Sequence record: NC_048170.1
Reading direction: 5' to 3' (one strand)
DNA length: 64,000 nucleotides
DNA from: Escherichia phage vB_EcoM_Goslar
Below, piece after piece: positions 23,117 to 45,687 of the stretch; the first letter of the stretch is position 1, and every line of letters starts with the position of its first letter. The notes beneath the pieces are model-generated. The model was given only the letters and a program-made list of their open reading frames with translations, ran no database searches and had not been told where the DNA came from. Position numbers and translations under genes: made by a program.

Positions 23117-26100
23117 TTACTTGTAGGCACCGCAATGTGCTTTGATGAGGAAAAGCACCGCTTGCATCGGTTTATTGAACTGTTGCCATAACGTCAATGC
23201 AGGATGGAACAACCAATCTTCCAGGCCAAGAACAATACCGTAGTTAACGACATTATTAACATCGTTCTCAACGTTGAGTTCGCTGTCCAGGAATTTATCG
23301 ATTGAACGCAGGGTCTGCATGGCGTTGTCAGCAATAAGCCAAGCTTCATGTGCTTCACGAGCCGCACGCAGCACTGCCTCCAGTTCGCTGATAGTAGCTA
23401 CCGGTAATTCCTCACTGGTGAGGTCGTCAGAAACCGTAAACTGGCGATTGATACCGGTGTAGATCCACTGCATCAGTTTCGCTGCTTCCTCGTTCGGGTT
23501 GTTGCGCGTTGTCGCATAAGTCGCGCTCACCTTCACGATGTGCGTTTCACCAAGATACGCTTTGGACCCAACACCTTTACGATCGCTGTCTTTCCACGGT
23601 TGTACGGTAGCGACCATGAGCTTATCCCATTTCTGAATAGGAATACGCTTCAGACCAACAACCGATCCGGCGGATGTTTCGGACTGGTTGCTCTTCCGCA
23701 CTTCGCTGAGCTCACGATCGATAGCAACGATTAATTCACGCGTCATGTTACCGAGCATTTTGATTTCACCCAACGCAGCGATGAGCTTCTTCACATCGGT
23801 AACAGGTTCACCACCGATGGTAAGATGACGGATGAAACGTTTCAGAATAATCCGTTCCGCTGCTGGATTACCGCGACGCGCTTTGGCCAGCGCTTGCTGT
23901 GTTTCGGCGAACAGCTTATCCCATGGAGCCGTAGCGGCGGTATAGTAACGGTGGTTGGTTTCAATCCAGTTACCGATACGGTTGACCGCGCTCTTAACGG
24001 TATCCATGAATCCTTCCATCGCAATTTCGGTAGCTTCCACGTTACCCTGGAAGTTATCAGGACCGATCTCGCGTGCCGCTACCAGAATACCTTCCACCGC
24101 ACTCACCGCATGACGACCGATAGCCAGATTTCGCTGCGCTTCTTCAGCACGCTCAACGAATTCCACTACCGCAGGATCGTCGACGATTTCCGCCTCGGCA
24201 ACAGCACGCGTACCCGCATCACCTTCCAGCGTTTCGATGGTGACAACCGGATCGTTTTCACCGGCAACATCCTGGTACTCTTCCTGTTTGAGATCGCCGT
24301 TATCAGCCGCTGCGACAGCGGTGAGTATACGGACGGTAACATCACCGAGTTCTTTTGCAGTGAATCCGTAGACGGTGCATGCTGTTGTCGCAAAGTTCAT
24401 CAGTGTGCGTGTGCGTTTAACGATGTAGCCAACATCATAATCGCTACCGCTCTTATCGATGTCACGGATTAACCGTTCAGCTGTCTCCTGAAGTTGTGTA
24501 GCTGCTTTCAGAAGGTCTTCGTCAAACAGTTTCGTTGACGCATCGATCAGCATATCAACGCTAACGTTAGACGGTACAGCATCATCCTGCTGTTTCATGG
24601 CGCTAAGTTCGTCACGGAACTTACGAATACCGTCTAAAGCGGCGTCAGCGGTATGTCCGAACGCAGCCACGCCTGACATTGTTGTTGCCGTCAGCATGTC
24701 TGAATCTGCGTTTGGACTTTCGCCTTCTTTAAGATTCTTCAACTGGTCGAAGAACTTACGAGATGCTTCAGCGATACGTTTACTGTCTTTGACCGCGTTT
24801 ACGATCTTATCGACAGATTTAGCGTCGTTCGCGAGCAGAGTATCCAGTTTATTCCACTCAACGTCAACCTTCTTGGTATCGCTTGGTGGTGGAAGCAGTT
24901 TCATCACTGGCGTTGTACGTTGTTCTTTGGTGAGCTTATCGGCCTTCTCATCGATTTTCTTTTTACTAACACCGAAGAGTTTTCTTAGGCGTGCCACGAT
25001 TGCTTTTAAGAACTTCGCGACCGCTTCGTAAACCGATTTCAGAATCTGTTTAAAGCGACCTGGCTGCTTTTCCCCGTCTTCCAGATTGAGATCGCTATTC
25101 AGTGCGACATCAAGCTGTTTGTACGATTCCATGATGTATTCGTCTTTGATTTCAGGACGAATCTCGAAGCTTTCCATCGGACCTTCAGCCGGACGGAATT
25201 CCATTTTCAGTTCGCCTTGCAGGGTAGGGTCGATAATAGCGATAGCTTCACCCTGACCATCAGCGTTAAAGCGTTCAGCGTAACGAGTACGGCGAACAAT
25301 AACACTCTTATCCCCATCAAGACGACGTACCACCATGGTGCCAGGAATGTACGGTTGTTCTGTTTCAATGACGGTTACATCTGCTTCACCTTCGCCGAGA
25401 ATAACCGATGCGCGCTGTTCAACAACAGGAACATCTAATACGCCACGGGCTTCCAGCTCTTGACGAATTTCGAACGACTCTTGTTTCAGATCTTCATCTT
25501 CTTCGTTTTCGTCGTCTTCATCATCGTCACCTTTGGTGTTTTCATTACCCTCGGTGGTTGTGGTGTTTGTAGCAGCAGCGTCGGCGTCTGTGTTGGTAGG
25601 TTCTTCGGACGCAGGTTCGGTGGTGCCGTCCTCGGCAGGCGTTTCGTCAGCGTTATCGACGTCAACATCACCTTGCAGCTCCGTTTCTTGAGCAACTGCT
25701 TCGGCTTTCTGCTCGCCGGTATTACCATCATTAGCGTCGACAACAGGTTGTTCGTCAGCGACGGTATCTTCAACCTTTTCTACTTTCTCCACGACACGTT
25801 TAATCACGGTGACTTTGATGGGTTCTTCCGTTGTTTTGGTTTCTGGCGTCACCTCGGCTGCCGCAGCCGCTGTTTCAGCAACAGGTTCTGCTTTTTCCGG
25901 TTCGACGACATTACCTTTAACACCTTCGGTGGTTTCTGCAGGTTGCGCTGCCTGTTCGATTTGCGCCGGATTGGTTGGATCGATGGCGTTAGCCGCATCC
26001 TGAATCTTGTTCTTCAGGTTGTCGCGGTCAGCGTTAACGGTCGGGTCGTTGGTCACTTTCGGTGCCGGTGTTTCGGTCGGCGCGTTTGCCGGATACGGGT

Positions 26101-26494: not shown

Positions 26495-26509
26495 AAAGCG
26501 TTATTCCTC

Positions 26510-27616
26510 TTAAAAGTAATATTTCAGCGCCTCGCGAGAGACATCAAGCATAGCCGCTGTTGAATTCGTAAAGAACTCGGCATAGCCCACAAGCGGCACC
26601 TTGATCCACGCGGTATACGCTGTAAGGTATCGAGAAAGGGCTACCATAGCATCATCAGAAGCAGTAGTAACTGACAACTGACCTTGTTGACGATAAACGT
26701 CGTTAAGTTTTGCTTGTAGATTCCCTGCGATTTCGAGTAACTCGTTGGCGTACTTTTTACGATGGTAACTAACCAGCAAATCAACACCCGTATTTACAGA
26801 CTCGAGTAGAAGACCAACTTGTTCTAATGTTGGCATTGTAACCACCATATCCCGTTCAACGGATGGGACATCCTGGACTTCAAACCGTGCGGATTGAATG
26901 GCGAGGGACTGTTGAATTGATCCAGAACCTGAAGCGGTAACTTGATCGAGTCGTAGCATACGGTTGCCCAGTAACGTCACGTTGACGAGTTTCGATTCGT
27001 TCAGCGTACTGTAGACTTTATGCAATAACGTATACGCATCACGGTTAATCACATCGATTAATGCGGTATCCGTCTGTTTTAAGATAATGTCGAGTGCTCT
27101 ATCTAACGTATTAGCGAACTGCTTAAAATCATCACGGAACGACGAAGACAAGAGATATTCAGCGATCGCTAAATTCTGTTTGTATAACGTATTCCCGGTT
27201 GTGAAATCGAACCCAAAACTGTTCCCATACCGTAGGTGCGGAGCCAACGTCGACGAAGCTTCGAAGCTTTGCGCGATAGGTTTACGACCAACGGCTTTTG
27301 TGTAGTGACGGCGGATGTTGCTGAGTTCGAGCTGTAGTGCGCGACTACGATCGATAAACCGTGCGATAAACGCGGTAATGTTCCGCAACGTTGTCCAGAT
27401 TGCATCGATGATAGCTTTGATGATCTTCATCGCAAGTTGATCGTACGATTCCATTGTGAGGAGATCAGCACTTTCCGTGGTATAACTGGTTGATAGCATA
27501 CCACCCGCTTGCTGATAAATAAGCTGGTGAATTTGTCGTTGCGTTGCTGTCTCTGGCACAGGTAATGTTTTTAACAAGCTTAACGCTTGAATCTGTCCAT
27601 CATTGGTCTGCAGCAT
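26510..27616 (-). CDS. head/internal protein paralog (family member E)
   Basis: ORF track frame; in-frame ATG at 27616 with GAGGAA upstream, overlapping upstream stop by 17 nt; motif ESYDQLAMKIIKAIIDAIW. Confidence 0.75.
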   Translation of the reverse strand: MLQTNDGQIQALSLLKTLPVPETATQRQIHQLIYQQAGGMLSTSYTTESADLLTMESYDQLAMKIIKAIIDAIWTTLRNITAFIARFIDRSRALQLELSNIRRHYTKAVGRKPIAQSFEASSTLAPHLRYGNSFGFDFTTGNTLYKQNLAIAEYLLSSSFRDDFKQFANTLDRALDIILKQTDTALIDVINRDAYTLLHKVYSTLNESKLVNVTLLGNRMLRLDQVTASGSGSIQQSLAIQSARFEVQDVPSVERDMVVTMPTLEQVGLLLESVNTGVDLLVSYHRKKYANELLEIAGNLQAKLNDVYRQQGQLSVTTASDDAMVALSRYLTAYTAWIKVPLVGYAEFFTNSTAAMLDVSREALKYYF

Positions 27617-28901
27617 TGCTGGTTTCCTCAAGTTCGAGATGCGCGTCAAGATAATCATTAAGACCATCGATGACGTCGCAGACAGTTAACAGGAATCGGG
27701 CAAAAGCAACCGCCTGGAAGCCGACGACGTTACGCGCGATACCCACGCGTTGAACGATAGCGGATGCTGCGGTATCGTTATTGCCCATCTGTTGTAGCAA
27801 ACGTTCATACGGTTGAATCCATTCGTCCTGGTCGGCAAGGCTTGCTTCAAGACAACGTTTAAATTCCAACTGTCGTAGCGTAGACCATAACGTACTTAAT
27901 GCGTTGATGATCGCGTTGGTTCCGTCGATAACATCGTTTAACGGTAAGAAACGGAATCCGTCTTTTGCTGATTGGAAAGGTGCGGCTTCCCACACAACGC
28001 TGAACTGCGTTCCTGTTGCGTCTTCGATGTTGTGTAATTTAAGATAGGAAGCACCAACAGGAACGTCAACGACCAGATCGTCTGTTCCGGTAGGTGTTAA
28101 CGGCTTCTCGCATAACGCCTCGTTGATGGCCTCGAGAATATTCTCCCAACAGGCTTCGTTTTCCGCAGCGATACCTTCTTTGTTATCCGCTGATGGTGCT
28201 TTTAGTAGCTGCATTAATAACGGATCAAGTTGACGGTGCCATGCTGCGAGGATTCCTGTGTTCGTTACGATGTTTTCTGCGGTTTGTCGTAAATCAGCAA
28301 TACTGCTTACCGCACCGCCTTTCGGATGGAGATATCGCCAGTTGTAGGGAAAGTTCTCCCAGAATGCGTTATCTTCATCGACGTCGTATTCGGAAATAGT
28401 TTTCAACGCAGCCGCTTTCTTTAATAACGGCTTCACCTGACGAACGAATCGACGATAACAGCGATTGCAGATATCGATCGCATAGCGGTATAATTCGTTC
28501 ATGTAAAGCCATAATGCACGGGTTGCTTCTTTTGCTGTCTTGTCAAAACTTTCCATGTTCAGACTCATCCCGCTGGAAGTTTCCTCTTCCAGACCCTCGA
28601 TGATGTGGTTTGGATCCATCCCCATCCCGGCTGCTGCGGTCGATGCGATATGTTTGATGGTGTTGATATCGCGTTCCTCGACTTCAGCCATGTTTGGGAC
28701 AATATCCAGCCTGAGTTTATTTAATGTTTGAAGGTGTTGTTCACCTTCTTTCATCGCCGTGTTTGTTTCGTCGATTGAGTGAAACTGATTCTCAATATTA
28801 CTGGCATCGAGAATGTTGCCAGCGATACCGAACGATTCTACAGGTTCATCATCAATCCCTTGAAACAACGATGTCATGGGTTGTTGTAACACGTTTTCCA
28901 T
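27600..28901 (-). CDS. head/internal protein paralog (family member C, 433 aa)
   Basis: ORF track; ATG with AGGAG 7 nt upstream; acidic N-terminal region; HIASTAAAGMGM and ESF...ALWLYM motifs shared with neighbours. Confidence 0.8.
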   Translation of the reverse strand: MENVLQQPMTSLFQGIDDEPVESFGIAGNILDASNIENQFHSIDETNTAMKEGEQHLQTLNKLRLDIVPNMAEVEERDINTIKHIASTAAAGMGMDPNHIIEGLEEETSSGMSLNMESFDKTAKEATRALWLYMNELYRYAIDICNRCYRRFVRQVKPLLKKAAALKTISEYDVDEDNAFWENFPYNWRYLHPKGGAVSSIADLRQTAENIVTNTGILAAWHRQLDPLLMQLLKAPSADNKEGIAAENEACWENILEAINEALCEKPLTPTGTDDLVVDVPVGASYLKLHNIEDATGTQFSVVWEAAPFQSAKDGFRFLPLNDVIDGTNAIINALSTLWSTLRQLEFKRCLEASLADQDEWIQPYERLLQQMGNNDTAASAIVQRVGIARNVVGFQAVAFARFLLTVCDVIDGLNDYLDAHLELEETSNAADQ

Positions 28902-29040: not shown

Positions 29041-29050
29041 GATATAGTGG

Positions 29051-33134: not shown

Positions 33135-33159
33135 TTAAGTGAACCGTCAGCTCACTTAA
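33135..33159. other. hairpin ttaagtga-N9-tcacttaa overlapping stop codon of gene 33156..33686
   Basis: 8-bp inverted repeat with 9-nt loop; no T-run follows. Confidence 0.4.
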
Positions 33160-33686
33160 AAGCCCTTAAAACCCGGTGCCATAGGTTGCCCAAACACCGC
33201 ATTCAAAGTACATATGATGTCCTGGATGCCATTGTCCCAATGGAGCCAAGTACGCACCATCTCTTCGTCTGACAACGTGATATAACTCATAAGTTTACCG
33301 CTGCTTTCCAGACGTTGGTGTGAACTTAACGACTGACGATCTGACCAGTTATCAATCAATTGACCAGCAATCTGAACGTTCGTGTCTCGTCTACCCGTGT
33401 GAATGAACCGTAGTGTATCGCGGATAAACTCCAGACTGGTGAAATTCAGATTTGGGTTATGGCTGTTCATTTCCACCCAATCGGTGATGGGGTACATCAA
33501 ACGATAAAGGGTAGAAAGAACCTGACGTTCATATTTCCAGTCATCGAGAGGAGTACCGTCGACCAGACGCTGATACAAACTAACAACGTCGCGATCGTAG
33601 TTCTCCTGGCGTTTTACGCCGTTAACCGGAAATCCGAAGAACCCGGTACCGTATAACGTTAAAGGGACGTCACGAAGTGCACTCAT
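33156..33686 (-). CDS. hypothetical protein (176 aa)
   Basis: ORF track; ATG; start overlaps upstream stop by 4 nt. Confidence 0.7.
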   Translation of the reverse strand: MSALRDVPLTLYGTGFFGFPVNGVKRQENYDRDVVSLYQRLVDGTPLDDWKYERQVLSTLYRLMYPITDWVEMNSHNPNLNFTSLEFIRDTLRFIHTGRRDTNVQIAGQLIDNWSDRQSLSSHQRLESSGKLMSYITLSDEEMVRTWLHWDNGIQDIICTLNAVFGQPMAPGFKGF

Positions 33687-34585
33687 ACAGCCGCCTCTTC
33701 TTTTCGTTTGATGTCGTAACGAAGTTTCTTCAGTCGCTCTTCGTGATATTCGATCTGTTGCTGGATTTTTGGATCGTTGCCCGCATTCTGTTGCTTTTGC
33801 TTCAGTGACAAAATCCAGTACTCCAACGCTTGGGCTTCTTCTTTGGCTGCTTGTAACGACGCTTCTTCACGTTCGCTGCGCCAGATGCGATAACGGTAAA
33901 TAAGCGTGTTGGTCATTTGAGTGTCGGACCATGAGCCCATACGCATCGGGTCAGTATTACCCGCGTTGTATAAGCCATTACCAACACCGTCTTCATCAGA
34001 AACCACAACATCCGGGATTTTATCCAACCCAGCAAGGATCTGTTGTTTCTGTCCACACAGCACCTCGGTGGCAATGGCGAAACCGTACATGTTGGCGGTT
34101 AGGTAAGCAATCTCGTTTTTGGTGAAGAACTCACCAAGTGCTTTATCACCACCCGGCATGCTTTCGCAGATGACCGTCGCACGAAGCAGCGTACGAGCGT
34201 AGCTAACGTAGAAGCCCAGGGACTCAACAAGACGTACCAGAGCGGCTTCTTTGAAACTCAGACCGTCGGCAGCAACATCGATTTCCAGGTTTTTGTTAAC
34301 ACGTTTAACAATTTCTGGAATCAGATCAACAGCATTACGTAGCGCTAAGTGAACGTTTTCTACCCAGCTTCCAGAGCGAACGCGGGTTAAACGCTGGTGC
34401 AGATCCTTATCAGCAAGTTTCCATAAGGCGCTTTCCCCTTTTTGGAGAAGCGAAGCGGATGTCTCGTAGTAAGGAATCGCGGTGTTGTTGATTTCGTCAC
34501 GGATTGATTCAAGTGCGTCAGCAACACCGGTGCGTTTAAAAAGCGGTTTCAAACCGCGAATGAATTCTTTAAAATCAATTGCCAT
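33683..34585 (-). CDS. hypothetical protein (300 aa)
   Basis: ORF track; ATG start. Confidence 0.75.
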   Translation of the reverse strand: MAIDFKEFIRGLKPLFKRTGVADALESIRDEINNTAIPYYETSASLLQKGESALWKLADKDLHQRLTRVRSGSWVENVHLALRNAVDLIPEIVKRVNKNLEIDVAADGLSFKEAALVRLVESLGFYVSYARTLLRATVICESMPGGDKALGEFFTKNEIAYLTANMYGFAIATEVLCGQKQQILAGLDKIPDVVVSDEDGVGNGLYNAGNTDPMRMGSWSDTQMTNTLIYRYRIWRSEREEASLQAAKEEAQALEYWILSLKQKQQNAGNDPKIQQQIEYHEERLKKLRYDIKRKEEAAV

Positions 34586-34624
34586 GAGTGAGCACCTATG
34601 CTATTTCGAAACAGGTTACGTGTA

Positions 34625-35731
34625 TTAACGAATCTGTGGGACGTTTCCGGTACGGAGCGCCTGGAGGATCGTCAGAAGATCGGAACCCGAAGTTGACGAA
34701 CTGTTGGATTTTTCCAGTTGCTTGAAGCTTACGGTGGTCCCTTGATCCAAGCTGTGGAAATAGAAGGTCACCATCTCTTCAGCTTCGTCGATGATGATCA
34801 ACTGCATTGCGAGGGCTTCAGCCATGACTTTCTGACGTGTGGTATAGTCAGATAAACGACGTCCGATCTTACGCTCGATGGCTTCCTGGTTAGCCTTAGA
34901 GATGATATAGGTGGAGGCGATTGCTCCAGAAGAAGGGATCTTTGTGCTCGCTGCAGCTTTTGCGGCATTGATGCGCGCAGCATTAACAGCCTTGCGGATA
35001 CCCTCTTTATCCATGCGTGAGATTCGTTTATGTTCACGAACCAGATCGCTAAGCAGGATCATATCGCTCCAGAAAGACAGCTCACCAGCCATCATGCGAT
35101 GCCAACGTGCTCGCCAGGTGTTCTGTGGGCCACCGATCGCTAAAATCGATGCAAGCACTTCCGCTGGAGAGCTTGCAATACGCATGCTGATGTTCAACGG
35201 CATTTTCATCGTTGCCTGACCATCGGTCAGCGTCACGGTTAAGAACTTGCCGGTGACCGCGTTCGCATCTTTGTTCAGCAATTCGATCGCCGCGTCGCTA
35301 GCTCCAACATCGAGGCTATTTTTTTGTTTCCCCTGCAGGTTGAATCCTTTGTCATCAAGGAAAACAAGGCTTTTGCTATCCGCACTTTCCAGCGCTAATT
35401 TGATAGCCTTATCCGTCAGATTAGCATTACGATTTGGGTTCACACGACCCAGCGTTTTATCTACACTGATGTTACCCACCTGCATGATGGTATTCAACGC
35501 CAGTAAATAGAACCCGGTATACATGTTTTCAGCGGTGCGCATGCAGTTGCCTAACGCATTGCGTGCGTCGCTATAATACAACTCACGTTCAAAGATCAAC
35601 GGCGCGATAACGCGTGAAGGTTGTGAGAGTTCAACCAGCGAACCTGGCTGGATAAGTTTATTAACTTCGTAGACTTTAGCGATACCGGACGCAACAACGT
35701 TAACAGCGTCGGCAATTTCTGATGCTACCAT
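34625..35731 (-). CDS. hypothetical protein (368 aa)
   Basis: ORF track; ATG with AAGGA upstream. Confidence 0.75.
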   Translation of the reverse strand: MVASEIADAVNVVASGIAKVYEVNKLIQPGSLVELSQPSRVIAPLIFERELYYSDARNALGNCMRTAENMYTGFYLLALNTIMQVGNISVDKTLGRVNPNRNANLTDKAIKLALESADSKSLVFLDDKGFNLQGKQKNSLDVGASDAAIELLNKDANAVTGKFLTVTLTDGQATMKMPLNISMRIASSPAEVLASILAIGGPQNTWRARWHRMMAGELSFWSDMILLSDLVREHKRISRMDKEGIRKAVNAARINAAKAAASTKIPSSGAIASTYIISKANQEAIERKIGRRLSDYTTRQKVMAEALAMQLIIIDEAEEMVTFYFHSLDQGTTVSFKQLEKSNSSSTSGSDLLTILQALRTGNVPQIR

Positions 35732-35765
35732 ATTGAAATCCTTATTTACAAATAAAGGAAAGAAA

Positions 35766-36971
35766 ATGTCTAATTACTACGACCAAGCTATTCAAACCAT
35801 TCAGGAGAATAATGCGTCGTTAACACCCGAAGCTGTGGAGGCAGCGGGCAATGCGGTGTTATTCACTGATTCGGATTGGGCAATAGCGCGGAAGAATATT
35901 CGTACCAGTGTCGGTCAAGGGACATACGAGGACAGTATCGCCAGACGGTATCGGAACGTGTCACCTATTCCAGGTAACAGCCCGATCCCGATTAACCGCG
36001 ATCATTCCGGTATTACCTTCTTTACACGACCTAATTTACATCTTACCGACGCGAACTTAAAACGAGATCGACGTTTGTGGTCGTTACGCACGGATAACCC
36101 TAACAGTATTCAGGCTGTTGTCCGCGACTACTTGGACCCTGTGGGTGCCAGAAAGCGGAACCATCGAGGACGTGCCATCGTCGATGAGCGCAATCCATTC
36201 ATAAGTATACTGACGGACAACCTGACGGATATCAGCGGTTTCAATGACATGGAAATGCAGGTCTATCAGGGTAAACCGGGATTACGCCAAGAAACCGTTG
36301 TGATGGCTGACGGTTCAGTGGATATGTTTCAACCCTATAACCTGAACGCGACGTTCAAGAACATCATGGGTAACCCCATCATGTTCCTTCATTATATTTG
36401 GTTGATTTACATCGCTGGTGTGCATAATGGCGAACTGACGCCAAGCCCTCAGGCCATCATTGATAATGAAATGGATTACTGGACAAGATGTTATCGTATC
36501 ATCTTGGATCCGACTGGGATGTATGTTCGTTATATCTTCGCGCCGACCGCGATGTTTCCGGTTGGGCTACCGATTGGTAATATGGCCAACTACAGCATCG
36601 ATAAACCCTTCACGCAAGATAACGAACGTATCACTATTCCATACCAAGCGGTTGGTAACAACGCATTTGATGAGATTCTGAAGGATGAATTCAATCGACT
36701 TGTCCTGATGTTCTATTACGGTGAGAACGATACCCGTACGTTCCTTGAAGATGAGGAGTTGGTACCTATCTCACCCTACGAGCGTCGAATCATGTCGTAT
36801 CGTGTCGATATGTATCCATTTATTCATCCGTTGACCTCAGAGCTTCTTTGGTTCGTACCCGCTGATGATTACAACGAATTCTATCTGGACCTTGAGCCGT
36901 CGGCGTTACCACCGGATACGTTCAGTCGCGATCTTGTCCGTACCACCATTCCGCAAAATTACGAGGGATAA
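35766..36971 (+). CDS. hypothetical protein (about 401 aa)
   Basis: ORF track frame; track start 35733 is TTG; ATG at 35766 has AAGGAAAG 7 nt upstream. Confidence 0.75.
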   Translation: MSNYYDQAIQTIQENNASLTPEAVEAAGNAVLFTDSDWAIARKNIRTSVGQGTYEDSIARRYRNVSPIPGNSPIPINRDHSGITFFTRPNLHLTDANLKRDRRLWSLRTDNPNSIQAVVRDYLDPVGARKRNHRGRAIVDERNPFISILTDNLTDISGFNDMEMQVYQGKPGLRQETVVMADGSVDMFQPYNLNATFKNIMGNPIMFLHYIWLIYIAGVHNGELTPSPQAIIDNEMDYWTRCYRIILDPTGMYVRYIFAPTAMFPVGLPIGNMANYSIDKPFTQDNERITIPYQAVGNNAFDEILKDEFNRLVLMFYYGENDTRTFLEDEELVPISPYERRIMSYRVDMYPFIHPLTSELLWFVPADDYNEFYLDLEPSALPPDTFSRDLVRTTIPQNYEG

Positions 36972-36974
36972 TAA

Positions 36975-39968
36975 ATGAGCGTAACCAACAAAGATCTTGC
37001 TGAACAGCTCAATCGCTATATGCTTTCACCTATTGAAATGCAGGCTGTTGCAAGCGATATGATCCGTTTGGCTTCTGATGGTGAATTAACCCTGGTTGAC
37101 CCCAGCTGTCCGTTTGTTTATCTGCTGGAGGTTGCAACGGCGACGGCGGCGAACCAGAACGCACGGGATGAATCCCGTGTTCGCGAACTGTATCCGAAGC
37201 TCGCAACGAACTGGAACCAGCTCTATCGTTGGATGTATGATGAGTCGTACGTTGGACGTTTCGCAATGCCGGGTAAAACGGAAATCATCTATTCGTTAGG
37301 GTATCAGGAAATCCTCGATCGCGCTGTAGAGATTCCCAACACCATCGCCTCCGATGATTTAAGCCGTTCTTACAGCCGTAAGTTAGTGATACCACGTACG
37401 ACGGCGTTTACGGTGGCTGGAATGGATTTCGGGTTGCATTATCCCATCGAAATCCAAGTACAAGCGCACGACCAGATCCGCGTCGTTTATAACACCGATA
37501 ACATCAGCCCATTGCAAACCTTGGAGAGTAACCAGGTTGAGTACGGGGTTGTTCGTGTAAAAGCGGGTAAAGTGTTGGTGATGCGTATTCCGCTGTTCCA
37601 GTTTAAAACACTGGTAAAAGATGTGCCGTTTAACAGCGTTCACGGGATGAACAGCAGCATTACCTTCGAAGATCAGTTTTACCATTGTCGTGCGTACATG
37701 TCGTCGGATAACGATACCTGGACGGAGATAGCGACAACACACAGTCAGCAGATCTACGATCCGTTAACACCAACCATCGCGTTACAAGTAGAAGGGAACA
37801 AACTTAACTGGCGTGTTCCTGAAATTTATTTGTCTCAAGGTACGATGGATAAAAGCACCATTCGACTTGAGGTGTTGACGACGAAAGGGAAAATCAGCGT
37901 CGACCCGTCTGATTACGACGTGACCGATTGGAAAGATAACTACATCGATTTGTCACCAAAAGCTGAACAGAAATACAGCGCGCCGCTAAGCGCATTCAAC
38001 ATTAAAGGGATTTATAGCGAAGGGGCATTGTCGGGTGGACGATCTGCATTAACGTTCGAGGAACAACGTGAACGTGTTATGGCGGGTGTGAACAAAACCA
38101 AGGTACCGATCACGGGAACGCAGGTAGAGCTGGTGCTTCAAGATGCGGGTTATGGGATGGTGACCACCATCGACAACGTAACCAATCGTTCGTTCCTGGC
38201 AACCCGAGATTTACCGCAATTGAGCGACAGCGTGCCGCAAGCCGGTTCGTTGATGGGGTCTTTCTATACGTCAGCTGCAGCATTGGTGAAAAGTAAGTTT
38301 GTCGCCGATAACGGCGATCGTATTACAATTAAACCTGACTGCCTGTATCGCGACAGTAACGGAAGTATCACGCTGTTGTCGGACGATGAAATTGACCGTA
38401 TTAATGCAGGCAACTCCGATGCGAAGTTGAACGCGGTAAACAACGCCATGTTGTTCTACAGTCCGTTTCATTACGTATTAGATGCAACAAGCGATTTCGA
38501 CATCCATGCTTATTACCTGGATGCCCCTAAGATCGGCACACAAGCATTCCTCGACGCGAACGAGACGATCCCGTTAACCGCTATGGTGACCGGATACCGT
38601 CTGGATCGTATCGCTGAAGGATATCGTCTAAGCCTCATTGTAGAAGGTAACGACGCATGGAAGGCGCTCGACGATAAAAACGTGCACATCCAGCTGGGAT
38701 TCAATCCGCGGGGTGAGGGTGATTATGCGACGATGCTGGCGTCACCGACAACCGATGAACAAGGTCGTCGTTTGTTCACCTTCGATATCACCACGAATTA
38801 CGATTTTACACGAATCCTGGCCGATGATTCCACGGCGTATGAACCGTATATCGCATTGACTTCGTTCTCGATGTATGAATCAACACCGCGGGATTATTGG
38901 GCATCACTGCAGCAGTATTTGGAAATCTTCCATGTGGTGACGGATTACGCGCCTGAAGATGTCGACGGTATCTTACACAGCGCTTCCGATAATTACCTGG
39001 TTAAGAAACTCACGCTTCAAAATGGGTATTGTTTCTACCGTGAACGTCTCACCGCAACCTTTGGTTATGATCTGGATGGTCTTTGGATGCGTTCTCGTAC
39101 GGTGGCCTCGGAGATCACGTATAAACGTTACACCGAGAACATTCCGTGGGTGTATGATGAAGATATCCCAGCGACGGATGAGACCGGTTCTGTTATCATT
39201 GAGCCGGGTGACGATGGTACGTTGTCGGTTAAATATCTGCATCGTAAAGGAGATCCGAAATTAAACAGTGATGGGAGCCAAGCCTATCGTTATCTGAAAG
39301 GCGACATCATGAAAGATAATTACGGTAATCCGATCCCCGTCGATGAACGTGAGGTTCTGCGTAACCTGGATATGTTCTTTATTGATGCATCGTATCTGTT
39401 AGCGAACGATACAGACGTGATTGAGTATCGTAATGCGATTCCTACGCAGCTTATCGAATGGATCCAGAACGATATCGACACGTTCAGGAATTTCTGTTAT
39501 GAAGAAACAGAGATTTCATTGTATCCTAAGCAATCGCTGGGGTATGTGGATGTTATTGTGGAAAACGGATTGGAAACGACGCTTCCTGCTGCCCTATCGT
39601 TCAACGTGACGCTGTACTTACCAGCTAAGCAATACGCTGACCTGGATTTACGTCAGGTCCTTCAAGCGATGGTATCGAAAGTCATCAATGAATGCTTAAC
39701 ATCCCGTACAGTGGCGAAAGCAGAAATGATCGCGATGATTCGTGAGGAGGGCGGTGACGACATCCTTAACGTTGAAATCGATGATTTTGGACCAGGTAAG
39801 AACCTCAGTGTTTATACCGCGAAGAACGATGGTGTTCGTTGTGCGGTGAAGAAAGAGCTTTATGTTAAAGCGGATGGTATCTTGTCCGTACGTGAAGCGA
39901 TCGATGTAAGTTTTGTGAAACATGCACAAAGCAACAGCACAGCGTTAGCGCAAGGCCTCCGTGTCTAA
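36975..39968 (+). CDS. large hypothetical virion protein (997 aa)
   Basis: ORF track; ATG with GAGGGA upstream; 3 nt after previous stop. Confidence 0.85.
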   Translation: MSVTNKDLAEQLNRYMLSPIEMQAVASDMIRLASDGELTLVDPSCPFVYLLEVATATAANQNARDESRVRELYPKLATNWNQLYRWMYDESYVGRFAMPGKTEIIYSLGYQEILDRAVEIPNTIASDDLSRSYSRKLVIPRTTAFTVAGMDFGLHYPIEIQVQAHDQIRVVYNTDNISPLQTLESNQVEYGVVRVKAGKVLVMRIPLFQFKTLVKDVPFNSVHGMNSSITFEDQFYHCRAYMSSDNDTWTEIATTHSQQIYDPLTPTIALQVEGNKLNWRVPEIYLSQGTMDKSTIRLEVLTTKGKISVDPSDYDVTDWKDNYIDLSPKAEQKYSAPLSAFNIKGIYSEGALSGGRSALTFEEQRERVMAGVNKTKVPITGTQVELVLQDAGYGMVTTIDNVTNRSFLATRDLPQLSDSVPQAGSLMGSFYTSAAALVKSKFVADNGDRITIKPDCLYRDSNGSITLLSDDEIDRINAGNSDAKLNAVNNAMLFYSPFHYVLDATSDFDIHAYYLDAPKIGTQAFLDANETIPLTAMVTGYRLDRIAEGYRLSLIVEGNDAWKALDDKNVHIQLGFNPRGEGDYATMLASPTTDEQGRRLFTFDITTNYDFTRILADDSTAYEPYIALTSFSMYESTPRDYWASLQQYLEIFHVVTDYAPEDVDGILHSASDNYLVKKLTLQNGYCFYRERLTATFGYDLDGLWMRSRTVASEITYKRYTENIPWVYDEDIPATDETGSVIIEPGDDGTLSVKYLHRKGDPKLNSDGSQAYRYLKGDIMKDNYGNPIPVDEREVLRNLDMFFIDASYLLANDTDVIEYRNAIPTQLIEWIQNDIDTFRNFCYEETEISLYPKQSLGYVDVIVENGLETTLPAALSFNVTLYLPAKQYADLDLRQVLQAMVSKVINECLTSRTVAKAEMIAMIREEGGDDILNVEIDDFGPGKNLSVYTAKNDGVRCAVKKELYVKADGILSVREAIDVSFVKHAQSNSTALAQGLRV

Positions 39969-39989
39969 AACAAAATAGCGTGAGCATAA

Positions 39990-40021: not shown

Positions 40022-40030
40022 AATATGCTG

Positions 40031-42823
40031 TTATCTTACGTTATTGCTATTCTGCTGTTCGCTGAACCAGCCATACACCTTGAGATCGGTACCGTATTTC
40101 AATGCGATATACGCATTCAGCGCAGCGCAGAACAAAGACGCGAATGCCCATATCAGCGAAGGATCGACGTCTTCCGTTACCACTGGGAGAGTATTATCCG
40201 GTTCCCATGATGGTGAACTGTCCATGAACGTCGCGTACCATCCCCGCCGTTGTTCTTCGGTGGTAAAGTCGCTATGGGGTTCCAATGCTTCTTTTGCCAG
40301 ACGTCGATATTCGAACATATGCGTTGCTAAAGCCGATGAGTTACCAGATTCGCCCTCATAGTTCGGATCCACCGCATAACAGAGTTCTGTTGAATCTAAC
40401 AAAGCAACCGCCTGTGTGATGCTGTCGGCAGTGCCTGCACCATAGAGCTCGATAGACCGCGAAAGCTTTTCACAGAACGCATTTAACGCGGAAGGATTGG
40501 ACACCTGAAGGTCAAGGCCTAATGTCCACGGATAGTTACTGAATACACCCGTAAACCGTGGCATAACACCCAACAGATGCTGTCCGATTACGGCACGGTT
40601 ATAAACAGCCCTGTTATAGACTTGAAGCGCGGCCTCCAGGGCTTGGTTATAATGACGACGAAGCTCGTCACGAGAGTTGCGGAACCTGTTTGCCGCAAGA
40701 CTTGTGGCTGCGACGCTACAAACATCGTAATTGGTGGACGAGAGCACAACCTCGTTAAGATCGAACGCTTCCTGTTTCAATGTTCCGCTAACAGCCGCTG
40801 CTTCGCTGTTCGCTTTATCGACAACTGTACTCAAAGCGTTAATATAACGTTTAGCTCGGACCTCCAACCATTGTGCGATACCGAGAATATCCACCGCAGC
40901 TTTAGCAAGATCACGTGCATTCACGATTTCGTTCTTCAATGCCCCTAAACCTTTATTTTCAGGCGATGAGGCTTGTTGACGAATCATGCTGTTCAACATG
41001 GTAAGCAGATTATCCAACTCATGTCCGCTGACCTTGTTACGTGCATCGGTAATCGGCCCTTGCAGGAATTTACGGCAACCGTCGTTGTATCGAATCAGTT
41101 TATCCACATCGATAGATTCGTTCGTGGATTCCTTGAACTGATCCTTCAATTCTTCACGGTAATCATGGATTTCACTTGCGAGATTATCGATAGTGATACC
41201 ATCATGTCCAAGAAGAACTTTATTGAAGTTACCTTTCTCGAATGCAAGAGTAAGACCTTCACGAATCTTAGCGAGTTTGTCCTGATCAAGTTCACGACCG
41301 TTCGATAGCTCTTTCACTTCCGAGCTGATTAATGCCGAAACGTTACCCAGATTGTCGGTAACCCCTTTGAACGCTCCCGACCAGATCGTTCCTGCTTCAG
41401 CATATTTCGCAATGGTCTGAATACCGACGGTATGTAACGATGCTAAGCGTTTCTTCGTGCCTTCGGTAAGCAGTGCGTCTTTAGCTCGCGTAAGCTGACT
41501 GTTATTAGCTTCCGCCTGCTGAATCGCTGCTTTCGCACTTCCATTACGCCAGCTCTTAACCAGCCAATCAACCAAACGTTTTAGGATATTGACGGTGTAT
41601 TCCATTGTCCGCCGTAACGTTTCCCACGCGCTTTCTGCGGTATAGATGCCGTACCCTTCCATCTTCGTTGGGTCAAAGAAACCTTCCTGCACGAGATCGG
41701 TACGTGTGTAGCCATCAGCAGCTTCTACTTCCGCCTGGGTTTTATCCCAGAAGTCGTCGCTCTTTGCAGCAATCGCTGTATCTTTAACGTCCAGGATGAT
41801 CTGACCAACCGTTTGTGCAAACAGCAAGGCTGCACGTACCGATTGTGCGAACATCCGCTGATATTTGATTCGAACGCATTGCATCTGGGTTAGCAGATTC
41901 AGTTGTGCGATCCCATCCAAGGTGCTATCCTGAGCAAGTCCTTCGGCTTTAGCGATAACCTGTTTTACACGTTCAGCGACATCACCGTACTGCTGGCAAA
42001 CATCCCGCAGAATACGTGCCGCGAAGACCCCGGTACCGATATAGTTCAATAGGTCTTTTAACGACCATTCGGTCGGACAATCGGTCGGCGCAATAGGGAG
42101 TAAGCAACCATCACCGTCCATGAATCTCTCTAATGCGCTAATATCCTGATTTTCTACGCTCATGGGGATATCGACATCAGCCGCTTGCAGATCCAGCATC
42201 TGTTGTAGGATGTTGGTATCGGCTTGTACAAGCGTCGCAAGCGCTTGGCTGTGTGCGATTATTGGTAACGCAGGTGACCATACTGCAGCAAGCTTGTCGG
42301 CGTGACGTTGAATGGCATACCCCATATCCTCGATCACATCGGGATGCTCGATAACCCCCTGAAGCGTTTGATGTAGCTCACCGAGTTGCTGAGACAGATC
42401 GACCATCATGGTGTTGAAGGTTTCGTCATCCTCTTTGTGGTTGTCCAGACGCTCGAGTTCATGTCGAAGCAATGTAACGAGCTGTCCGTTGCCTTCTTGC
42501 TTCAGCTTGCTTTCCATTAACGTAATGGCTTTATCGACGATCTGACACGCTTCACGAAAACCGGTTGTGGAAGGAAGCTCTGTCCATAACGCCAGCGGTT
42601 TACCGTCAAGGGCTTCCGGCATCGATAACGAAAGCATAGACAGTTGTTGACGTGATACTTGCTGTTCACGGTGTAATGTTTCTTTTAACGCCAGGAGATC
42701 GTCAAGAAACGCGCCGTTAAGGGTGGTCGTACGTGGTGTTGAATTAATACCGTCAGTTAACGATTCAAGCACCAGGAGACCGTTATCAGCTGAAGAGAGT
42801 CCCGCGGCAAGATATTTGTTCAT
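40031..42823 (-). CDS. large hypothetical virion protein (930 aa)
   Basis: ORF track; ATG with GGAG 7 nt upstream; internal LVQEGFF motif; hydrophobic C-terminal segment. Confidence 0.85.
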   Translation of the reverse strand: MNKYLAAGLSSADNGLLVLESLTDGINSTPRTTTLNGAFLDDLLALKETLHREQQVSRQQLSMLSLSMPEALDGKPLALWTELPSTTGFREACQIVDKAITLMESKLKQEGNGQLVTLLRHELERLDNHKEDDETFNTMMVDLSQQLGELHQTLQGVIEHPDVIEDMGYAIQRHADKLAAVWSPALPIIAHSQALATLVQADTNILQQMLDLQAADVDIPMSVENQDISALERFMDGDGCLLPIAPTDCPTEWSLKDLLNYIGTGVFAARILRDVCQQYGDVAERVKQVIAKAEGLAQDSTLDGIAQLNLLTQMQCVRIKYQRMFAQSVRAALLFAQTVGQIILDVKDTAIAAKSDDFWDKTQAEVEAADGYTRTDLVQEGFFDPTKMEGYGIYTAESAWETLRRTMEYTVNILKRLVDWLVKSWRNGSAKAAIQQAEANNSQLTRAKDALLTEGTKKRLASLHTVGIQTIAKYAEAGTIWSGAFKGVTDNLGNVSALISSEVKELSNGRELDQDKLAKIREGLTLAFEKGNFNKVLLGHDGITIDNLASEIHDYREELKDQFKESTNESIDVDKLIRYNDGCRKFLQGPITDARNKVSGHELDNLLTMLNSMIRQQASSPENKGLGALKNEIVNARDLAKAAVDILGIAQWLEVRAKRYINALSTVVDKANSEAAAVSGTLKQEAFDLNEVVLSSTNYDVCSVAATSLAANRFRNSRDELRRHYNQALEAALQVYNRAVYNRAVIGQHLLGVMPRFTGVFSNYPWTLGLDLQVSNPSALNAFCEKLSRSIELYGAGTADSITQAVALLDSTELCYAVDPNYEGESGNSSALATHMFEYRRLAKEALEPHSDFTTEEQRRGWYATFMDSSPSWEPDNTLPVVTEDVDPSLIWAFASLFCAALNAYIALKYGTDLKVYGWFSEQQNSNNVR

Positions 42824-42838
42824 AAAACACTCCGTTGG

Positions 42839-42869
42839 CCTAGGGGAAGGTTTTCAGCCTTCCCCTAGG
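42839..42869. terminator. hairpin cctaggggaagg-ttttcag-ccttcccctagg
   Basis: Perfect 12-bp stem, 7-nt loop; between stop 42883 and start 42823. Confidence 0.6.
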
Positions 42870-42882
42870 GTTATAAACACAA

Positions 42883-45687
42883 TTAAGCTAATTTACCGAA
42901 ACCGGCTTTCTGCAGTTTCTCGTTGATGATTTTCGCTTCAGCGAAGACGTAATCGCGGTAGGCGGTCACTAACGCATCCACACGTGAACGCAAGGCTTCT
43001 TCGAAGCTATACCACGCAGCGATTTCACGAATCTGTGCGTTGATATAATCAACGGTTGAGCGAAGCTCGGTTGCGTTTTCCTGCGGGATGGCTTTCACCT
43101 GGCGAGCAACGTCATTTAAACGACGGAACTGTGTTTCGATTTCTTTAAACTTATTGTCGGCAAGTTTGCTGAATTCGTCACCAGAACGGGTAAATAACAG
43201 ATAGCTGTTGCCATCAAGTGCGGTCGCTAACTGCTGAAGTACGTTGGTGTCCGGATACACAGGAGTACCGCTTTGCAGTACCTTCTCACCGAATTCCGCG
43301 AAGTCCTTCGGTGGTAAGTGCGCAGACGTTGTCAACTCGTTGAAACGGAAAGTCAGCGAACTATCATACAACATCCGGTACGCTTCCATACCCTGCTTCA
43401 TGGTGCCAGCCAGGTTGGCCAGACGCGGAGCAATCTCACCCTCTTTAGCGCGTTTCTGGTCTTCTAACGCCCCTTCGAGTTCTTTACACTGGTCGTTCAG
43501 ATACACGATACGATCGGGACGCAGACGACGCATCTCACGAAGAATGGTATCCAGCTTACCTTCCTGGAAATAACCTAGCGTTAAAGACGTACACGCTTGC
43601 TGAAGACGATCGAACACCGGTAAGGTTACCATCTCCTTACGGATACCATCAACAATCGCAGAAACAGCCGAAAGTTTCTGTTCTGTCGTTAATGGAACAT
43701 CAGAGACCGACTTGCTGGGCGCACCAACAACGTTACGCATTGCGTCGGTATCCTCGGTTTTATCAACCTCTTTACGAACATGCTCATCAGGAACATAAAC
43801 GTTCGCATTACGTTTCGCCTGCTTGATGGCATCGTTGGCCGCTTTTTCGGTGGCTGCTACGCTATCGGCACGTTTCTTCAAGAGTTCAATAATCCAGAGC
43901 ACCAGACGACGAATCGCAGTATAGGCCGTCGTGATGATGACACCGATAACAGCCATCTTCATGATACCGAACGATTCCATGGTCGGCTCTAATGCCTGGT
44001 CTGGCATATAGCGTTCACGCAGCTCCAGATAGATCTGCTCATCCGGTTTGCTGATCTCGCCACGATGCGAAGTCCGATAGATGGCTTCGTCAATCTCAAC
44101 AAGATCTTTGCGTGCCTGACGGTCTGTTTCGGTCAAATAAGCGCAGCCGGATACGTCGTCTTCAAAACTTTCGAACTTAAAGAAATCGACAACCATCTTG
44201 GCAAGCGCCTCTTTCTTAGCAGGATCGAGTGTCTTCGCATCTTCTTTTTGCTTATCCATTTTTTCCTTGAATTTCTCTTTGTAGTCATTCAAGGGTTTTA
44301 CCGCTCTTGCTTTCAACGCGTTATAGATAGCTTTCCACTCATCGTTACGTTCGAGGACAATGAAATGGTTTTTGAGTTCGAAAGCGCGATAGCGTGCAAC
44401 GAGCTGTTCTACCTGAATATGAGCGAGTTGGATATCCATTAACCAACGCGACATCGCCGAGATCAAACGGCTATAAGCGAACAACGTTTGGTAGGTTAAC
44501 TTCATGTATGTTTCATACAGCTCAATATCGCCGCTCTGAATATTGGCTGTTGGATTCATTTCCTTTGTTGCCTTGAAGACCTGTTCTGCTTCTCTCAGCG
44601 TCTTTTCGAACTTAACGTCATTAAACGCAGTGAATGGTTCAGCCAACTCATGCATTTTATCGTGGAGTTCGCGGATCCAAGCTTCCTTGCTGTCGCGGAT
44701 GGTGTTTTCATCATGGAGCACGGTTTGATGTTTTCGTACCCATTCTTCCACGATATCAGCAGCGGAAACAATCGGAACGCGATCTGAAATGAGCGGGACG
44801 ATCGTGTGAAGCGCCCCGACACATTCTGGCGTGTCCCAGTGTTTCTGGAGTTCATCACGGAAACGGTTAATGTTTTCTAAGGTGGTACCTAAATCAAGGA
44901 AAGTGCCGCCATTATGACTCATCTGTGCAACCAGATCGGCAAATACCTTTTGTTTTTCGATGACAAAAGGAACCATCCGCATAAGCCATTCAGCAGTTGC
45001 TTTAGCCTTTTCTTTCAGGTTCTTATCGGCGATTTCTTTAAGGTTAATCGCGCTACCGTATCCTGCAAGTTCGTTGTAGACGTCGTTAACCGTCATCTCT
45101 TTATCCAACATTTCTTTGAAACGTGGATAATCTGCACCTAACGCGTCGATGACTTCTTGGATGATGTCGTCTGTGGTAGCGATAAATTTATTTGTGCCGC
45201 CGTAATGGTTCCAGATTTTCTGTAGCGTCTTCTTAAAGAATTCGAAGACGAATGTCCAGATACGCTTAATGAGTTCCCAGACTTTCTTCGCACCATCGAC
45301 AAACAGTTTAGAGACTTTGGCAACGAATCCTTCCTGCACCAACTCAACGCCGTTACGTGATGGAATTTCGGTGAAGAAAGCATCTGGCAGTTGTTTCGGG
45401 AACGCGTCACCAAGACGCATACGCAATTCGGGTACATCGGCACGAGAAATACCGCGCGTCGTTAACTGCTCGTGAAGACGAACGTTTTCTTCACCAGAGG
45501 CTACGAATTCGTTAACGTCAAATGACACCAGTTCTTGATCTTCGGTGGTGACGACGCTTGAACCATCACTGGTTTGGATGTCTTCGTCAGGGAATGCCAT
45601 GAGCATACCGTGACGCATTTCAACCACTCCGTAATCGGTTGCTAAACCGAATTCGTTGTGATCGGGGGTAATAACTGGGATACTCAT
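42883..45687 (-). CDS. large virion protein (934 aa) carrying the paralog-family N-terminal motif
   Basis: ORF track; ATG; VELVQEGFVAKVSKLFVDGAKKVWELIKRIW aligns with VVEGFKDTVVKAMKKIWDII of gene 30350..31666. Confidence 0.85.
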   Translation of the reverse strand: MSIPVITPDHNEFGLATDYGVVEMRHGMLMAFPDEDIQTSDGSSVVTTEDQELVSFDVNEFVASGEENVRLHEQLTTRGISRADVPELRMRLGDAFPKQLPDAFFTEIPSRNGVELVQEGFVAKVSKLFVDGAKKVWELIKRIWTFVFEFFKKTLQKIWNHYGGTNKFIATTDDIIQEVIDALGADYPRFKEMLDKEMTVNDVYNELAGYGSAINLKEIADKNLKEKAKATAEWLMRMVPFVIEKQKVFADLVAQMSHNGGTFLDLGTTLENINRFRDELQKHWDTPECVGALHTIVPLISDRVPIVSAADIVEEWVRKHQTVLHDENTIRDSKEAWIRELHDKMHELAEPFTAFNDVKFEKTLREAEQVFKATKEMNPTANIQSGDIELYETYMKLTYQTLFAYSRLISAMSRWLMDIQLAHIQVEQLVARYRAFELKNHFIVLERNDEWKAIYNALKARAVKPLNDYKEKFKEKMDKQKEDAKTLDPAKKEALAKMVVDFFKFESFEDDVSGCAYLTETDRQARKDLVEIDEAIYRTSHRGEISKPDEQIYLELRERYMPDQALEPTMESFGIMKMAVIGVIITTAYTAIRRLVLWIIELLKKRADSVAATEKAANDAIKQAKRNANVYVPDEHVRKEVDKTEDTDAMRNVVGAPSKSVSDVPLTTEQKLSAVSAIVDGIRKEMVTLPVFDRLQQACTSLTLGYFQEGKLDTILREMRRLRPDRIVYLNDQCKELEGALEDQKRAKEGEIAPRLANLAGTMKQGMEAYRMLYDSSLTFRFNELTTSAHLPPKDFAEFGEKVLQSGTPVYPDTNVLQQLATALDGNSYLLFTRSGDEFSKLADNKFKEIETQFRRLNDVARQVKAIPQENATELRSTVDYINAQIREIAAWYSFEEALRSRVDALVTAYRDYVFAEAKIINEKLQKAGFGKLA

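Follow-up and report, generated by a model that had tools for sequence, protein, structure and literature searches.

A 64,000-nucleotide stretch of the genome of Escherichia phage vB_EcoM_Goslar, a nucleus-forming jumbo phage (NC_048170.1; hereafter, the window), was analysed with emphasis on the interval 23117–45687. In this interval an earlier sequence-only reading had picked out an array of five adjacent paralogous genes coding for proteins with acidic N-termini, and a motif, consisting of E-[SG]-[FY] and an amphipathic helix, which recurs in three large proteins. It had proposed a phiKZ-like family of internal head proteins, with N-terminal propeptides removed by the prohead protease, and a cleavage or capsid-targeting function for the motif. 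We consider it likely that the interval is the head-internal protein module of Goslar and that E-[SG]-[FY] represents positions P1-P1'-P2' of a prohead protease site. The paralog array, its family, its synteny, the packaging of its products and the role of gp65 are already published for Goslar itself.

Gene content of the block and family membership

The genes were named gp53–gp58, gp64, gp65 and gp67 (Table 1) because the masses of their products and their identities to Protein Data Bank (PDB) chains match the Goslar electron cryomicroscopy (cryo-EM) study (10.64898/2026.04.21.720040). Computed masses of nine window proteins are within 2 Da of those in Table S4 of that preprint, the full-length gp65 is 100% identical to chains 11fg and 11mk and to the 801-residue chain of 36za, and a 740-residue open reading frame (ORF) of the window is identical to the major capsid protein of the same cryo-EM entries. 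The five array genes (gp54–gp58) were confirmed as minus-strand ORFs, with start codons that give the published masses for gp54 and gp57, and all the peptide strings quoted in the sequence-only reading were found in the translations.

Table 1. Genes and candidate cleavage sites in the window (aa, amino acids; the arrow marks the bond after the Glu)
Feature	Position (nucleotides)	Strand	Remarks
gp53, 1125 aa	23117..26494	(-)	mass 123,289.5 computed, 123,291 published
gp54, 368 aa	26510..27616	(-)	PF12699-like; computed mass equals published 41,244 Da
gp55, 433 aa	27600..28901	(-)	BLASTP to gp57 2e-9
gp56, 429 aa	29051..30340	(-)	BLASTP to gp57 6e-18
gp57, 438 aa	30350..31666	(-)	translation check; computed mass equals published 49,306 Da
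gp58, 440 aa	31769..33091	(-)	PF12699 82.4 bits; dominant PF12699 protein
gp59-gp63, conserved structural genes between the two groups	33156..39968	not single	BLASTP 6e-12 to 0.0 versus phiKZ-group proteins
gp64, 930 aa	40031..42823	(-)	mass match to Table S4
gp65, 934 aa	42883..45687	(-)	100% identical to PDB 11fg/11mk
gp67, 436 aa, HExxH motif	46158..47468	(-)	outside the interval 23117-45687; homolog of phiKZ gp84 and SPN3US gp45
portal gp36	1905-4814	(+)	969-aa ORF identical to the PDB chain 'Portal Protein gp36'
gp53 E827-G-F (IAME↓GF), paralog-type site	24008..24016	(-)	aligns with SPN3US gp54 ARE-137↓SL
gp53 further copy, E339	25472-25480	(-)	
gp53 further copy, E441	25166-25174	(-)	
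gp53 further copy, E456	25121-25129	(-)	
gp54 TME-56↓SY	27443-27451	(-)	
gp55 NME-117↓SF	28545-28553	(-)	ortholog r453 has NME↓GF
gp55 early PVE-22↓SF	28830-28838	(-)	
gp56 VLE-129↓GF	29948-29956	(-)	orthologs r463 and s460 have VLE↓GFKE
gp57 VVE-122↓GF	31295-31303	(-)	E122, F124 and W136 invariant in family alignment
gp58 ATE-110↓SY	32756-32764	(-)	
gp58 SFE-149↓SF	32639-32647	(-)	
gp64 VQE-380↓GF	41678-41686	(-)	
gp64 KME-389↓GY	41651-41659	(-)	
gp64 KQE-685↓AF	40763-40771	(-)	mass-spectrometry support
gp65 VQE-119↓GF	45325-45333	(-)	
gp65 TME-571↓SF	43969-43977	(-)	
gp65 FKFE-506↓SF	44164-44172	(-)	E506 not conserved

The order of the block is collinear, gene for gene, with phiKZ gp84–gp101 and SPN3US gp45–gp54, and the genes flanking the array are true BLASTP homologs of phiKZ and SPN3US genes, which places the array at the conserved location of an internal head module. 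Among the genes separating the array from gp64, gp59 belongs to the vertex-binding complex (counterpart of phiKZ gp91), and gp60 and gp61, the counterparts of phiKZ gp90 and gp89, are injected (10.64898/2026.04.21.720040); the counterparts of gp62 and gp63 are phiKZ gp88 and gp87. A phage collection, evidently one without Goslar, gave no match with megablast (20 kilobases) or with tblastn (gp53, gp64 and gp65).

The Pfam family PF12699 (phiKZ_IP, phiKZ-like internal head proteins) has a gathering cut-off of 27 bits, and only gp58 (82.4 bits) and residues 800–1125 of gp53 (27.5 bits) passed it; gp54 (21.5 bits) and gp57 (21.3 bits) scored below. No PF12699 match was obtained for gp55 and gp56, both of which are tied to gp57 by BLASTP (E = 2e-9 and 6e-18, respectively; gp55 versus gp56, 2e-7), and r453, the ortholog of gp55, scores 23.7 bits. 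A home-made hidden Markov model of the mature domains, which failed to recover gp53 or phiKZ gp97, was discarded as too noisy. The Goslar authors assign a PF12699 fold to gp53–gp58 (AlphaFold), place these genes in synteny with phiKZ gp92–97, find their products in virions at ~50–2150 copies each and call the role of PF12699 proteins an unsolved question (10.64898/2026.04.21.720040). In nucleus-forming jumbo phages, few kinds of cargo are as abundant as these proteins, which enter the host together with the DNA. Synteny, the PF12699 matches, the independent call of the preprint and detection in virions all support the phiKZ-type paralog family that had been suggested, but its proposed extent holds for gp53–gp58 only: gp65 is a vertex-binding-complex protein, and neither it nor gp64 shows global homology to PF12699. 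No match of gp64 or gp65 to the family was found even at E = 10, with full-length sequences or segments, and they were not counted as members.

In metagenomic relatives (L005, a contig of ENA ERZ926030; L007; L008) the homologs of gp59 and gp53 enclose four stand-alone PF12699 genes, against five in Goslar. The Goslar lineage has therefore probably acquired the gp56/gp57 pair by a recent duplication.

The second group consists of gp64 and gp65. In the cryo-EM study gp65 is a capsid vertex-binding-complex protein, a phiKZ gp86 homolog with an added second domain, present in 55 copies, and gp64 is listed in Table S4 at about 110 copies and is otherwise unmodelled and undiscussed (10.64898/2026.04.21.720040). 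Our comparison agrees, in that gp65 is by homology and by capsid location a gp86-type protein: BLASTP aligns it to phiKZ gp86 with E = 0.005 (Smith-Waterman z = 6.3), VQE↓GF standing opposite SQE↓AV. A gp86-type N-terminal region of ~100 residues, with the pattern [VI]SR...TE[LI]PS..G..L..E↓GF, is shared by gp64 and gp65 (window 42520–42823 and 45325–45687, respectively). At the ancestral site of Goslar gp64 the Glu is now Gln (FREACQIV); relatives keep LAME↓GF. Pairwise and profile alignments of the kind recommended in the sequence-only reading not only link gp55, gp56 and gp57 (BLASTP, above) but also align ~40 columns, comprising the site and the helix, of gp64 and gp65 with the PF12699 set (hhalign; probability 57% and E = 1e-4 for gp65, 22% and 1e-3 for gp64). 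Beyond this segment and the gp65–gp86 similarity, hhalign and Smith-Waterman comparisons of the gp64 and gp65 modules with PF12699, with SPN3US gp47 and with each other revealed no global homology. To judge from these alignments, the short shared segment may come from common ancestry or from convergence. An AlphaFold2 model of gp64 residues 381–930, made without an alignment, was all-helical and unusable (predicted local distance difference test score, 37.8).

Distant homologs of gp65 are scarce: among 1.84 billion representative proteins only two were found, 34% and 29% identical, and the family comprises three clusters at 50% identity. Among population variants, residues 121–520 of gp65 (window 44128–45327) are the most variable, with column identities of 0.81–0.95, and residues 1–120 and 521–934 are 0.97–1.0 identical.

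The motif and its position relative to mapped cleavage sites

In all eight proteins an amphipathic helix comes after E-[SG]-[FY]. The tripeptide occurs 16 times in their 5,097 residues, where ~3 occurrences are expected from composition (Poisson P about 1e-7), and 12 times in the 14,080 residues of the 40 other ORFs (Fisher P = 8e-4). Enrichment is stronger for the longer forms [VLMIFQ]E[SG][FY] (15 versus 5; P = 9e-6) and ME[SG][FY] (7 versus 0; P = 9e-5). That the motif is common to the five array proteins and the three large ones was therefore borne out with statistical significance. Just past the site, the best 18-residue helical hydrophobic moment is within the top 1–5% of the protein concerned for most sites. 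The acidic N-termini attributed to the whole array are a marked feature of gp55–gp58 (net charge −17 to −26; isoelectric point 4.05–4.2), but the 56-residue N-terminus of gp54 is just mildly acidic. For the part that follows the site, the isoelectric point is 7–9.3 in gp54, gp56, gp57, gp58 and the C-terminal domain of gp53, and 4.7 in gp55.

The SPN3US prohead protease, gp245, cleaves on the C-terminal side of Glu, with Ser favoured at P1', and semi-tryptic peptides located its sites in gp53 (AQE-125↓GWKETLKDLFER) and gp54 (ARE-137↓SLWDDIK and AQE-124↓SY); sites were also mapped in gp47 (ALE-111↓SW) and gp45 (ASE-20↓SI) (PMC10052503). When the proteins of Goslar, its relatives, SPN3US and phiKZ were aligned with MAFFT, a single column was found to hold VVE↓GF, VLE↓GF, NME↓SF and TME↓SY of Goslar together with AQE↓GW and ARE↓SL of SPN3US; the phiKZ proteins have S-x-E↓[DE][LI] in this column. 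The second gp58 site, SFE-149↓SF, falls in the column of SPN3US gp54 AQE-124↓SY. Comparison with the phiKZ gp93–97 and SPN3US gp53/gp54 families, another check that had been put forward, thus gives both synteny and a shared motif column.

In gp53, the copy MESFEIRP quoted in the sequence-only reading exists (residue 441), but the site homologous to those of the paralogs is AME-827↓GF. In this protein a PF12699 domain at the C-terminus (residues ~818–1125, nucleotides 23120–24043) is preceded by a long N-terminal part that is acidic and contains repeats, and residues 823–911 align with residues 133–229 of SPN3US gp54 (BLASTP E = 1e-3), E827 being paired with E137. A 1380-residue relative (r1380) has VME↓GM at the position of E827 and keeps KQE↓SF at the match of E339. 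As to the internal repeat (window 25121–25480, residues 339–458), ESFEIR[QP]E opens units at 339 and 441, and what is probably a small beta-rich domain comes after each unit start; the 1380-residue relative has extra copies, KQE↓SF at 298 and KTE↓GF at 895.

The sites are conserved at considerable distance. A related phage (loci L005 and L007), reached through a gp58 homolog of 45% identity, keeps VLE↓GFKE, NME↓GF, SFE↓SF, TTE↓SY and KQE↓SF, and the proteins of relatives that retain motif sites are just 25–45% identical to those of Goslar. These distant relatives came from the gp58 search; the other two homolog searches gave almost only variants that are 84–99% identical. At 45% identity, r449 and s452 retain both gp58 sites; the helix of gp58 begins at about residue 166. 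In gp65, E119 and F121 as well as M570, E571 and F573 are invariant in the two distant homologs, and the homolog alignment shows stronger conservation of the Glu and of the small and aromatic residues after it than of the downstream helix. The E506 copy is lost in these homologs and is variable among Goslar-like population variants too; judged by this pattern, FKFE-506↓SF is probably not functional. Short conserved N-terminal leaders, distinct from the motif, also end in Glu (ISLE-15, NAFE-16, PVE-22 and LAAE-23) and resemble SLE-13↓S of phiKZ gp93.

Peptides and structures from virions

Presence in virions, which had been predicted, was found for all eight proteins in the published mass spectrometry of Goslar particles (Table S4), with coverage of 31–69% and an estimated 46–2150 copies (10.64898/2026.04.21.720040). 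The estimates per virion are ~330 for gp53, ~70 for gp54, ~2150 for gp58 and ~48 for gp67, and injection into the host is published for gp58, gp60 and gp61 only (10.64898/2026.04.21.720040). The peptide search behind Table S4 permitted semi-tryptic peptides. The entries examined here are those beginning with A to about EI, so that neo-N-termini starting with G or S lie outside them, and peptide areas are a rough measure only.

Two cuts after Glu could be read from these entries. In gp67, the semi-tryptic peptide AIKFQDGSLFKEMTEFFR starts at A17, directly past LTME-16 (TME-16↓AIKF, nucleotides 47415–47423). This protein is homologous to SPN3US gp45 (BLASTP 8e-24), and the alignment opens with E16 opposite E20 of the mapped site ASE-20↓SIGFQD; gp67 is a substrate of the same protease. 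Also packaged, it contains a motif resembling that of zinc metalloproteases (HEIGH) and, towards its C-terminus, a strongly hydrophobic segment (residues 292–336). In gp64, the semi-tryptic peptide ANSEAAAVSGTLKQE ends at E685, before AFDL, with an area of 14,100 against 5,460 for the fully tryptic form. Both peptides attest cleavage C-terminal to Glu, and, like the flagged motif, the two sites combine Met or Gln (P2) with small P1' and hydrophobic P2' residues.

Peptides from the regions preceding the candidate sites are depleted in four proteins. For gp58, two N-terminal peptides have areas of 4,880 and ~17,000 against a protein total of 1.08e7 (0.05–0.16%). For gp64 they reach 2,420 or are not found, the mature-region peptides having areas of 41,000–224,000 (17–90 times stronger), and for gp65 the N-terminal peptide has an area of 451 compared with 14,400 in the mature region. 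For gp56, ASDIALIR from the N-terminal region is missing, and AALTSYLNAFR from the mature region has an area of 31,600. Peptide look-ups for semi-tryptic forms at gp65 E506, gp57 E15, gp56 E23, gp61 ALE-115 and after E152 of the capsid protein were negative, as were those for propeptide fragments of gp58.

In the composite model 36za, whose chains hold modelled residues only, gp65 begins at residue 134, 14 residues past E119. The model of the capsid protein starts at residue 158, past GCE-150/SEE-153, and processing of this protein was inferred by the Goslar authors themselves (10.64898/2026.04.21.720040). The portal is modelled from residue 5 (36za chain 5–921), its N-terminus thus being kept.

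Probable processing by the prohead protease

In the mechanism that we favour, the module would comprise six PF12699 internal head/ejection proteins (gp53–gp58), with gp64 and gp65 in the slot of phiKZ gp86 and SPN3US gp47. A prohead serine protease homologous to phiKZ gp175 and SPN3US gp245, its gene lying outside the window, would cut after the motif Glu and split the acidic N-terminal region, which would have a role in prohead assembly, from the helix-rich domain; the first amphipathic helix of the mature domain would start a few residues past the cut. Neo-N-terminal peptides expected from such cleavage are, for the array, GFKDTVVK (gp57), GFKER (gp56), SFDK (gp55), SFGGSASR and SYLK (gp58) and SYDQLAMK (gp54) and, for the other proteins, GFMDTVK and SFEIR (gp53), GFVAK and SFGIMK (gp65), GFFDPTK and GYGIYTAESAWETLR (gp64), and SEELVQLSYDQK or LVQLSYDQK (capsid protein).

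The proposal that the motif is a cleavage signal gains from the column shared with mass-spectrometry-mapped SPN3US sites and from the related cuts seen in Goslar; that the E↓[SG][FY] sites of gp53–gp58, gp64 and gp65 are themselves cut is what we infer, as is the identity of the fragments that exit the capsid. For gp64 and gp65 the motif is best explained if both are substrates of the same protease. Propeptide removal, as originally envisaged, agrees with the depletion in gp56, gp58, gp64 and gp65, but it does not extend to the whole set: one gp55 N-terminal peptide is undepleted, and the long N-terminal part of gp53 clearly stays in virions because its peptides (residues 84–96 and 202–220) are abundant, with areas of 79,000 and 11,000.

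Besides these two, several observations weigh against the proposed cleavage. An uncleaved gp53 peptide across E827 was detected, at a low area (541), and no semi-tryptic peptide ending in IAME is among the listed peptides of gp53; cutting at 827 may be incomplete. The deposited gp65 chain runs as one piece from 134 to 934, across the 571 site. In the gp54 ortholog r387 the sequence is IML↓GL, so Leu replaces Glu, and ALE↓D is found 12 residues upstream. The published P3-P1 consensus (S/A/G-x-E in phiKZ, A-x-E in SPN3US) is not fitted either, as only 3 of the 16 candidate sites have A or S at P3; the residues found there (V, V, N, S, T, V, V, K, P etc.) depart from the published non-prime preference. 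Retention of N-terminal parts is no argument against cleavage, because the N-terminal fragments of phiKZ gp93 and gp162 stay as capsid cement after cleavage (PMC11297242).

Some of these points would also suit a purely structural element, in which the motif and helix form an N-terminal cap and first helix inherited by gp53–gp58, gp64 and gp65 and uncut in Goslar. The ~40 columns shared by gp64/gp65 and the PF12699 set, the helix kept without Glu in r387, the peptide across E827 and the continuity of gp65 across residue 571 are all compatible with it. It does not account for the cutting of the same column in SPN3US gp53 and gp54, as determined by mass spectrometry (PMC10052503), for the cuts of Goslar virion proteins after Glu at the similar TME↓A and KQE↓AF, for the first 133 residues of gp65 missing from the map or for the depleted N-terminal peptides of four proteins, and a structural element would hardly have its Glu, small and aromatic residues conserved above the helix that follows. 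We judge it unlikely.

The alternative raised in the sequence-only reading, a signal targeting proteins into the prohead in the manner of T4 targeting sequences rather than a cleavage site, found no support and appears very unlikely. All eight proteins are packaged, and the T4 internal proteins do use short targeting peptides (PMC5694885), but these occupy the extreme N-terminal 10–20 residues, whereas the motif lies 56–827 residues in. The separate Glu-ending leaders (above) are better candidates for this role, and the packaged gp67 is cleaved at TME↓AI, which has neither the aromatic residue nor the helix. Chance or compositional recurrence in Glu-rich proteins, conceivable for so short a tripeptide with 12 copies elsewhere in the window, can hardly be credited and was rejected in view of the enrichment (P = 9e-6 for the four-residue form; ME[SG][FY], 7 versus 0), the conserved position across orthologs and the placement of the motif in the same alignment column, at the charge boundary.

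Prohead protease processing was compared with that of better-known phages, Glu-directed cleavage being established for phiKZ, 201phi2-1 and SPN3US. The phiKZ proteins gp92–gp97, gp162 and gp163, with the protease gp175, have the slot, gene order and Pfam family of Goslar gp53–gp58. As in Goslar, the phiKZ inner-body proteins consist of an acidic N-terminal region and a helix-rich domain, have a short leader ending in Glu and are cut at x-x-E just before the first helix (column S-x-E↓[DE]-[LI]; TSLE↓SF in gp97). phiKZ gp97 is the positional counterpart of gp53 and is built alike, with an extended acidic N-terminal part ahead of a PF12699 domain at the C-terminus. However, identity between the sequences can barely be detected, a single member (gp58, ~2150 copies) dominates in Goslar where phiKZ has several at 100–200, and the Ser/Ala/Gly at P3 of phiKZ is mostly absent from the sites of Goslar, where P1'-P2' is Ser/Gly followed by Phe/Tyr. 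phiKZ gp86, a product of verified protease cleavage, shares with gp65 the slot, the place in the capsid and an N-terminal region of ~115–120 residues that ends in x-Q-E and is followed by a Trp-containing helix. In contrast to gp86, gp65 is twice as long, with a second domain preceded by the conserved site TME↓SF and a strongly hydrophobic helix, and is adjoined by a tandem partial paralog, gp64.

Of the SPN3US sites, AQE-125↓GWKETLKDLF, ARE-137↓SLWDDIK and AQE-124↓SY in gp53 and gp54 share alignment columns with Goslar sites, the published preferences at P1' (Ser) and P4 (hydrophobic) are also seen in Goslar, and ASE-20↓SIGFQD of gp45 resembles TME-16↓AIKFQD of gp67, the latter confirmed by Goslar peptide data. 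The differences are that Ala is at P3 in 14/14 mapped SPN3US sites and mostly absent from Goslar sites, that SPN3US has two family members and Goslar six, and that the SPN3US portal gp81 sheds a 254-residue propeptide (PMC10052503), the Goslar portal being modelled almost from its start. T4 offers a looser parallel, with packaged and ejected internal proteins in paralogous families and a related protease, gp21, that cuts after Glu (PMC5694885); it differs in its leaders of 10–20 residues, small proteins, [LI]-x-E cleavage and the lack of sequence homology and of the PF12699 fold.

The specificity of the Goslar protease thus appears to be shifted relative to the published consensus: both mass-spectrometry-supported Goslar sites have T or K at P3, and what is common to Goslar and published sites is the preference for Ser/Gly at P1'. 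A more far-reaching version, tentative and somewhat less probable than not, combines a Goslar-clade protease with shifted subsites (P4 ~[LIV], P3 any, P2 Met/Gln/Val/Leu, P1 Glu, P1' Ser/Gly/Ala, P2' Phe/Tyr/Ile) with the idea that gp53, gp64 and gp65 are polyproteins, each divided internally at several positions, with several of the pieces remaining in the capsid (gp53 pieces, gp64 ~380–685 and 686–930, gp65 120–571 and 572–934). The Goslar site pattern without Ala/Ser/Gly at P3, the two readable cuts and the hint of multiple internal cuts appear to be new here. These additions are modest, and we therefore regard the finding as already known. Mature N-termini of the Goslar proteins are needed for copy numbers, for fitting unassigned capsid density and for the design of tagged or truncated constructs, and the subsite shift, if true, cautions against predicting sites in other chimalliviruses from the phiKZ/SPN3US rule alone.

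Two observations concern other parts of the window and the distribution of Goslar-like phages. An HNH endonuclease ORF (49258–50469, plus strand) directly follows a part of a DNA polymerase gene (47690–49189, plus strand) and may be a homing-endonuclease insertion in or beside a split polymerase gene. Contigs of 234–248 kilobases that resemble Goslar are present in draft assemblies deposited under the names Salmonella enterica, Shigella flexneri, E. coli and Enterobacter hormaechei, two IMG/VR contigs are Goslar-like as well, and the protein identity of Goslar-like genomes is 84–99%; searches of complete E. coli RefSeq genomes and of PLSDB plasmids gave no match to Goslar. This distribution suggests that the jumbo phage is often carried by, or contaminates, enterobacterial isolates.

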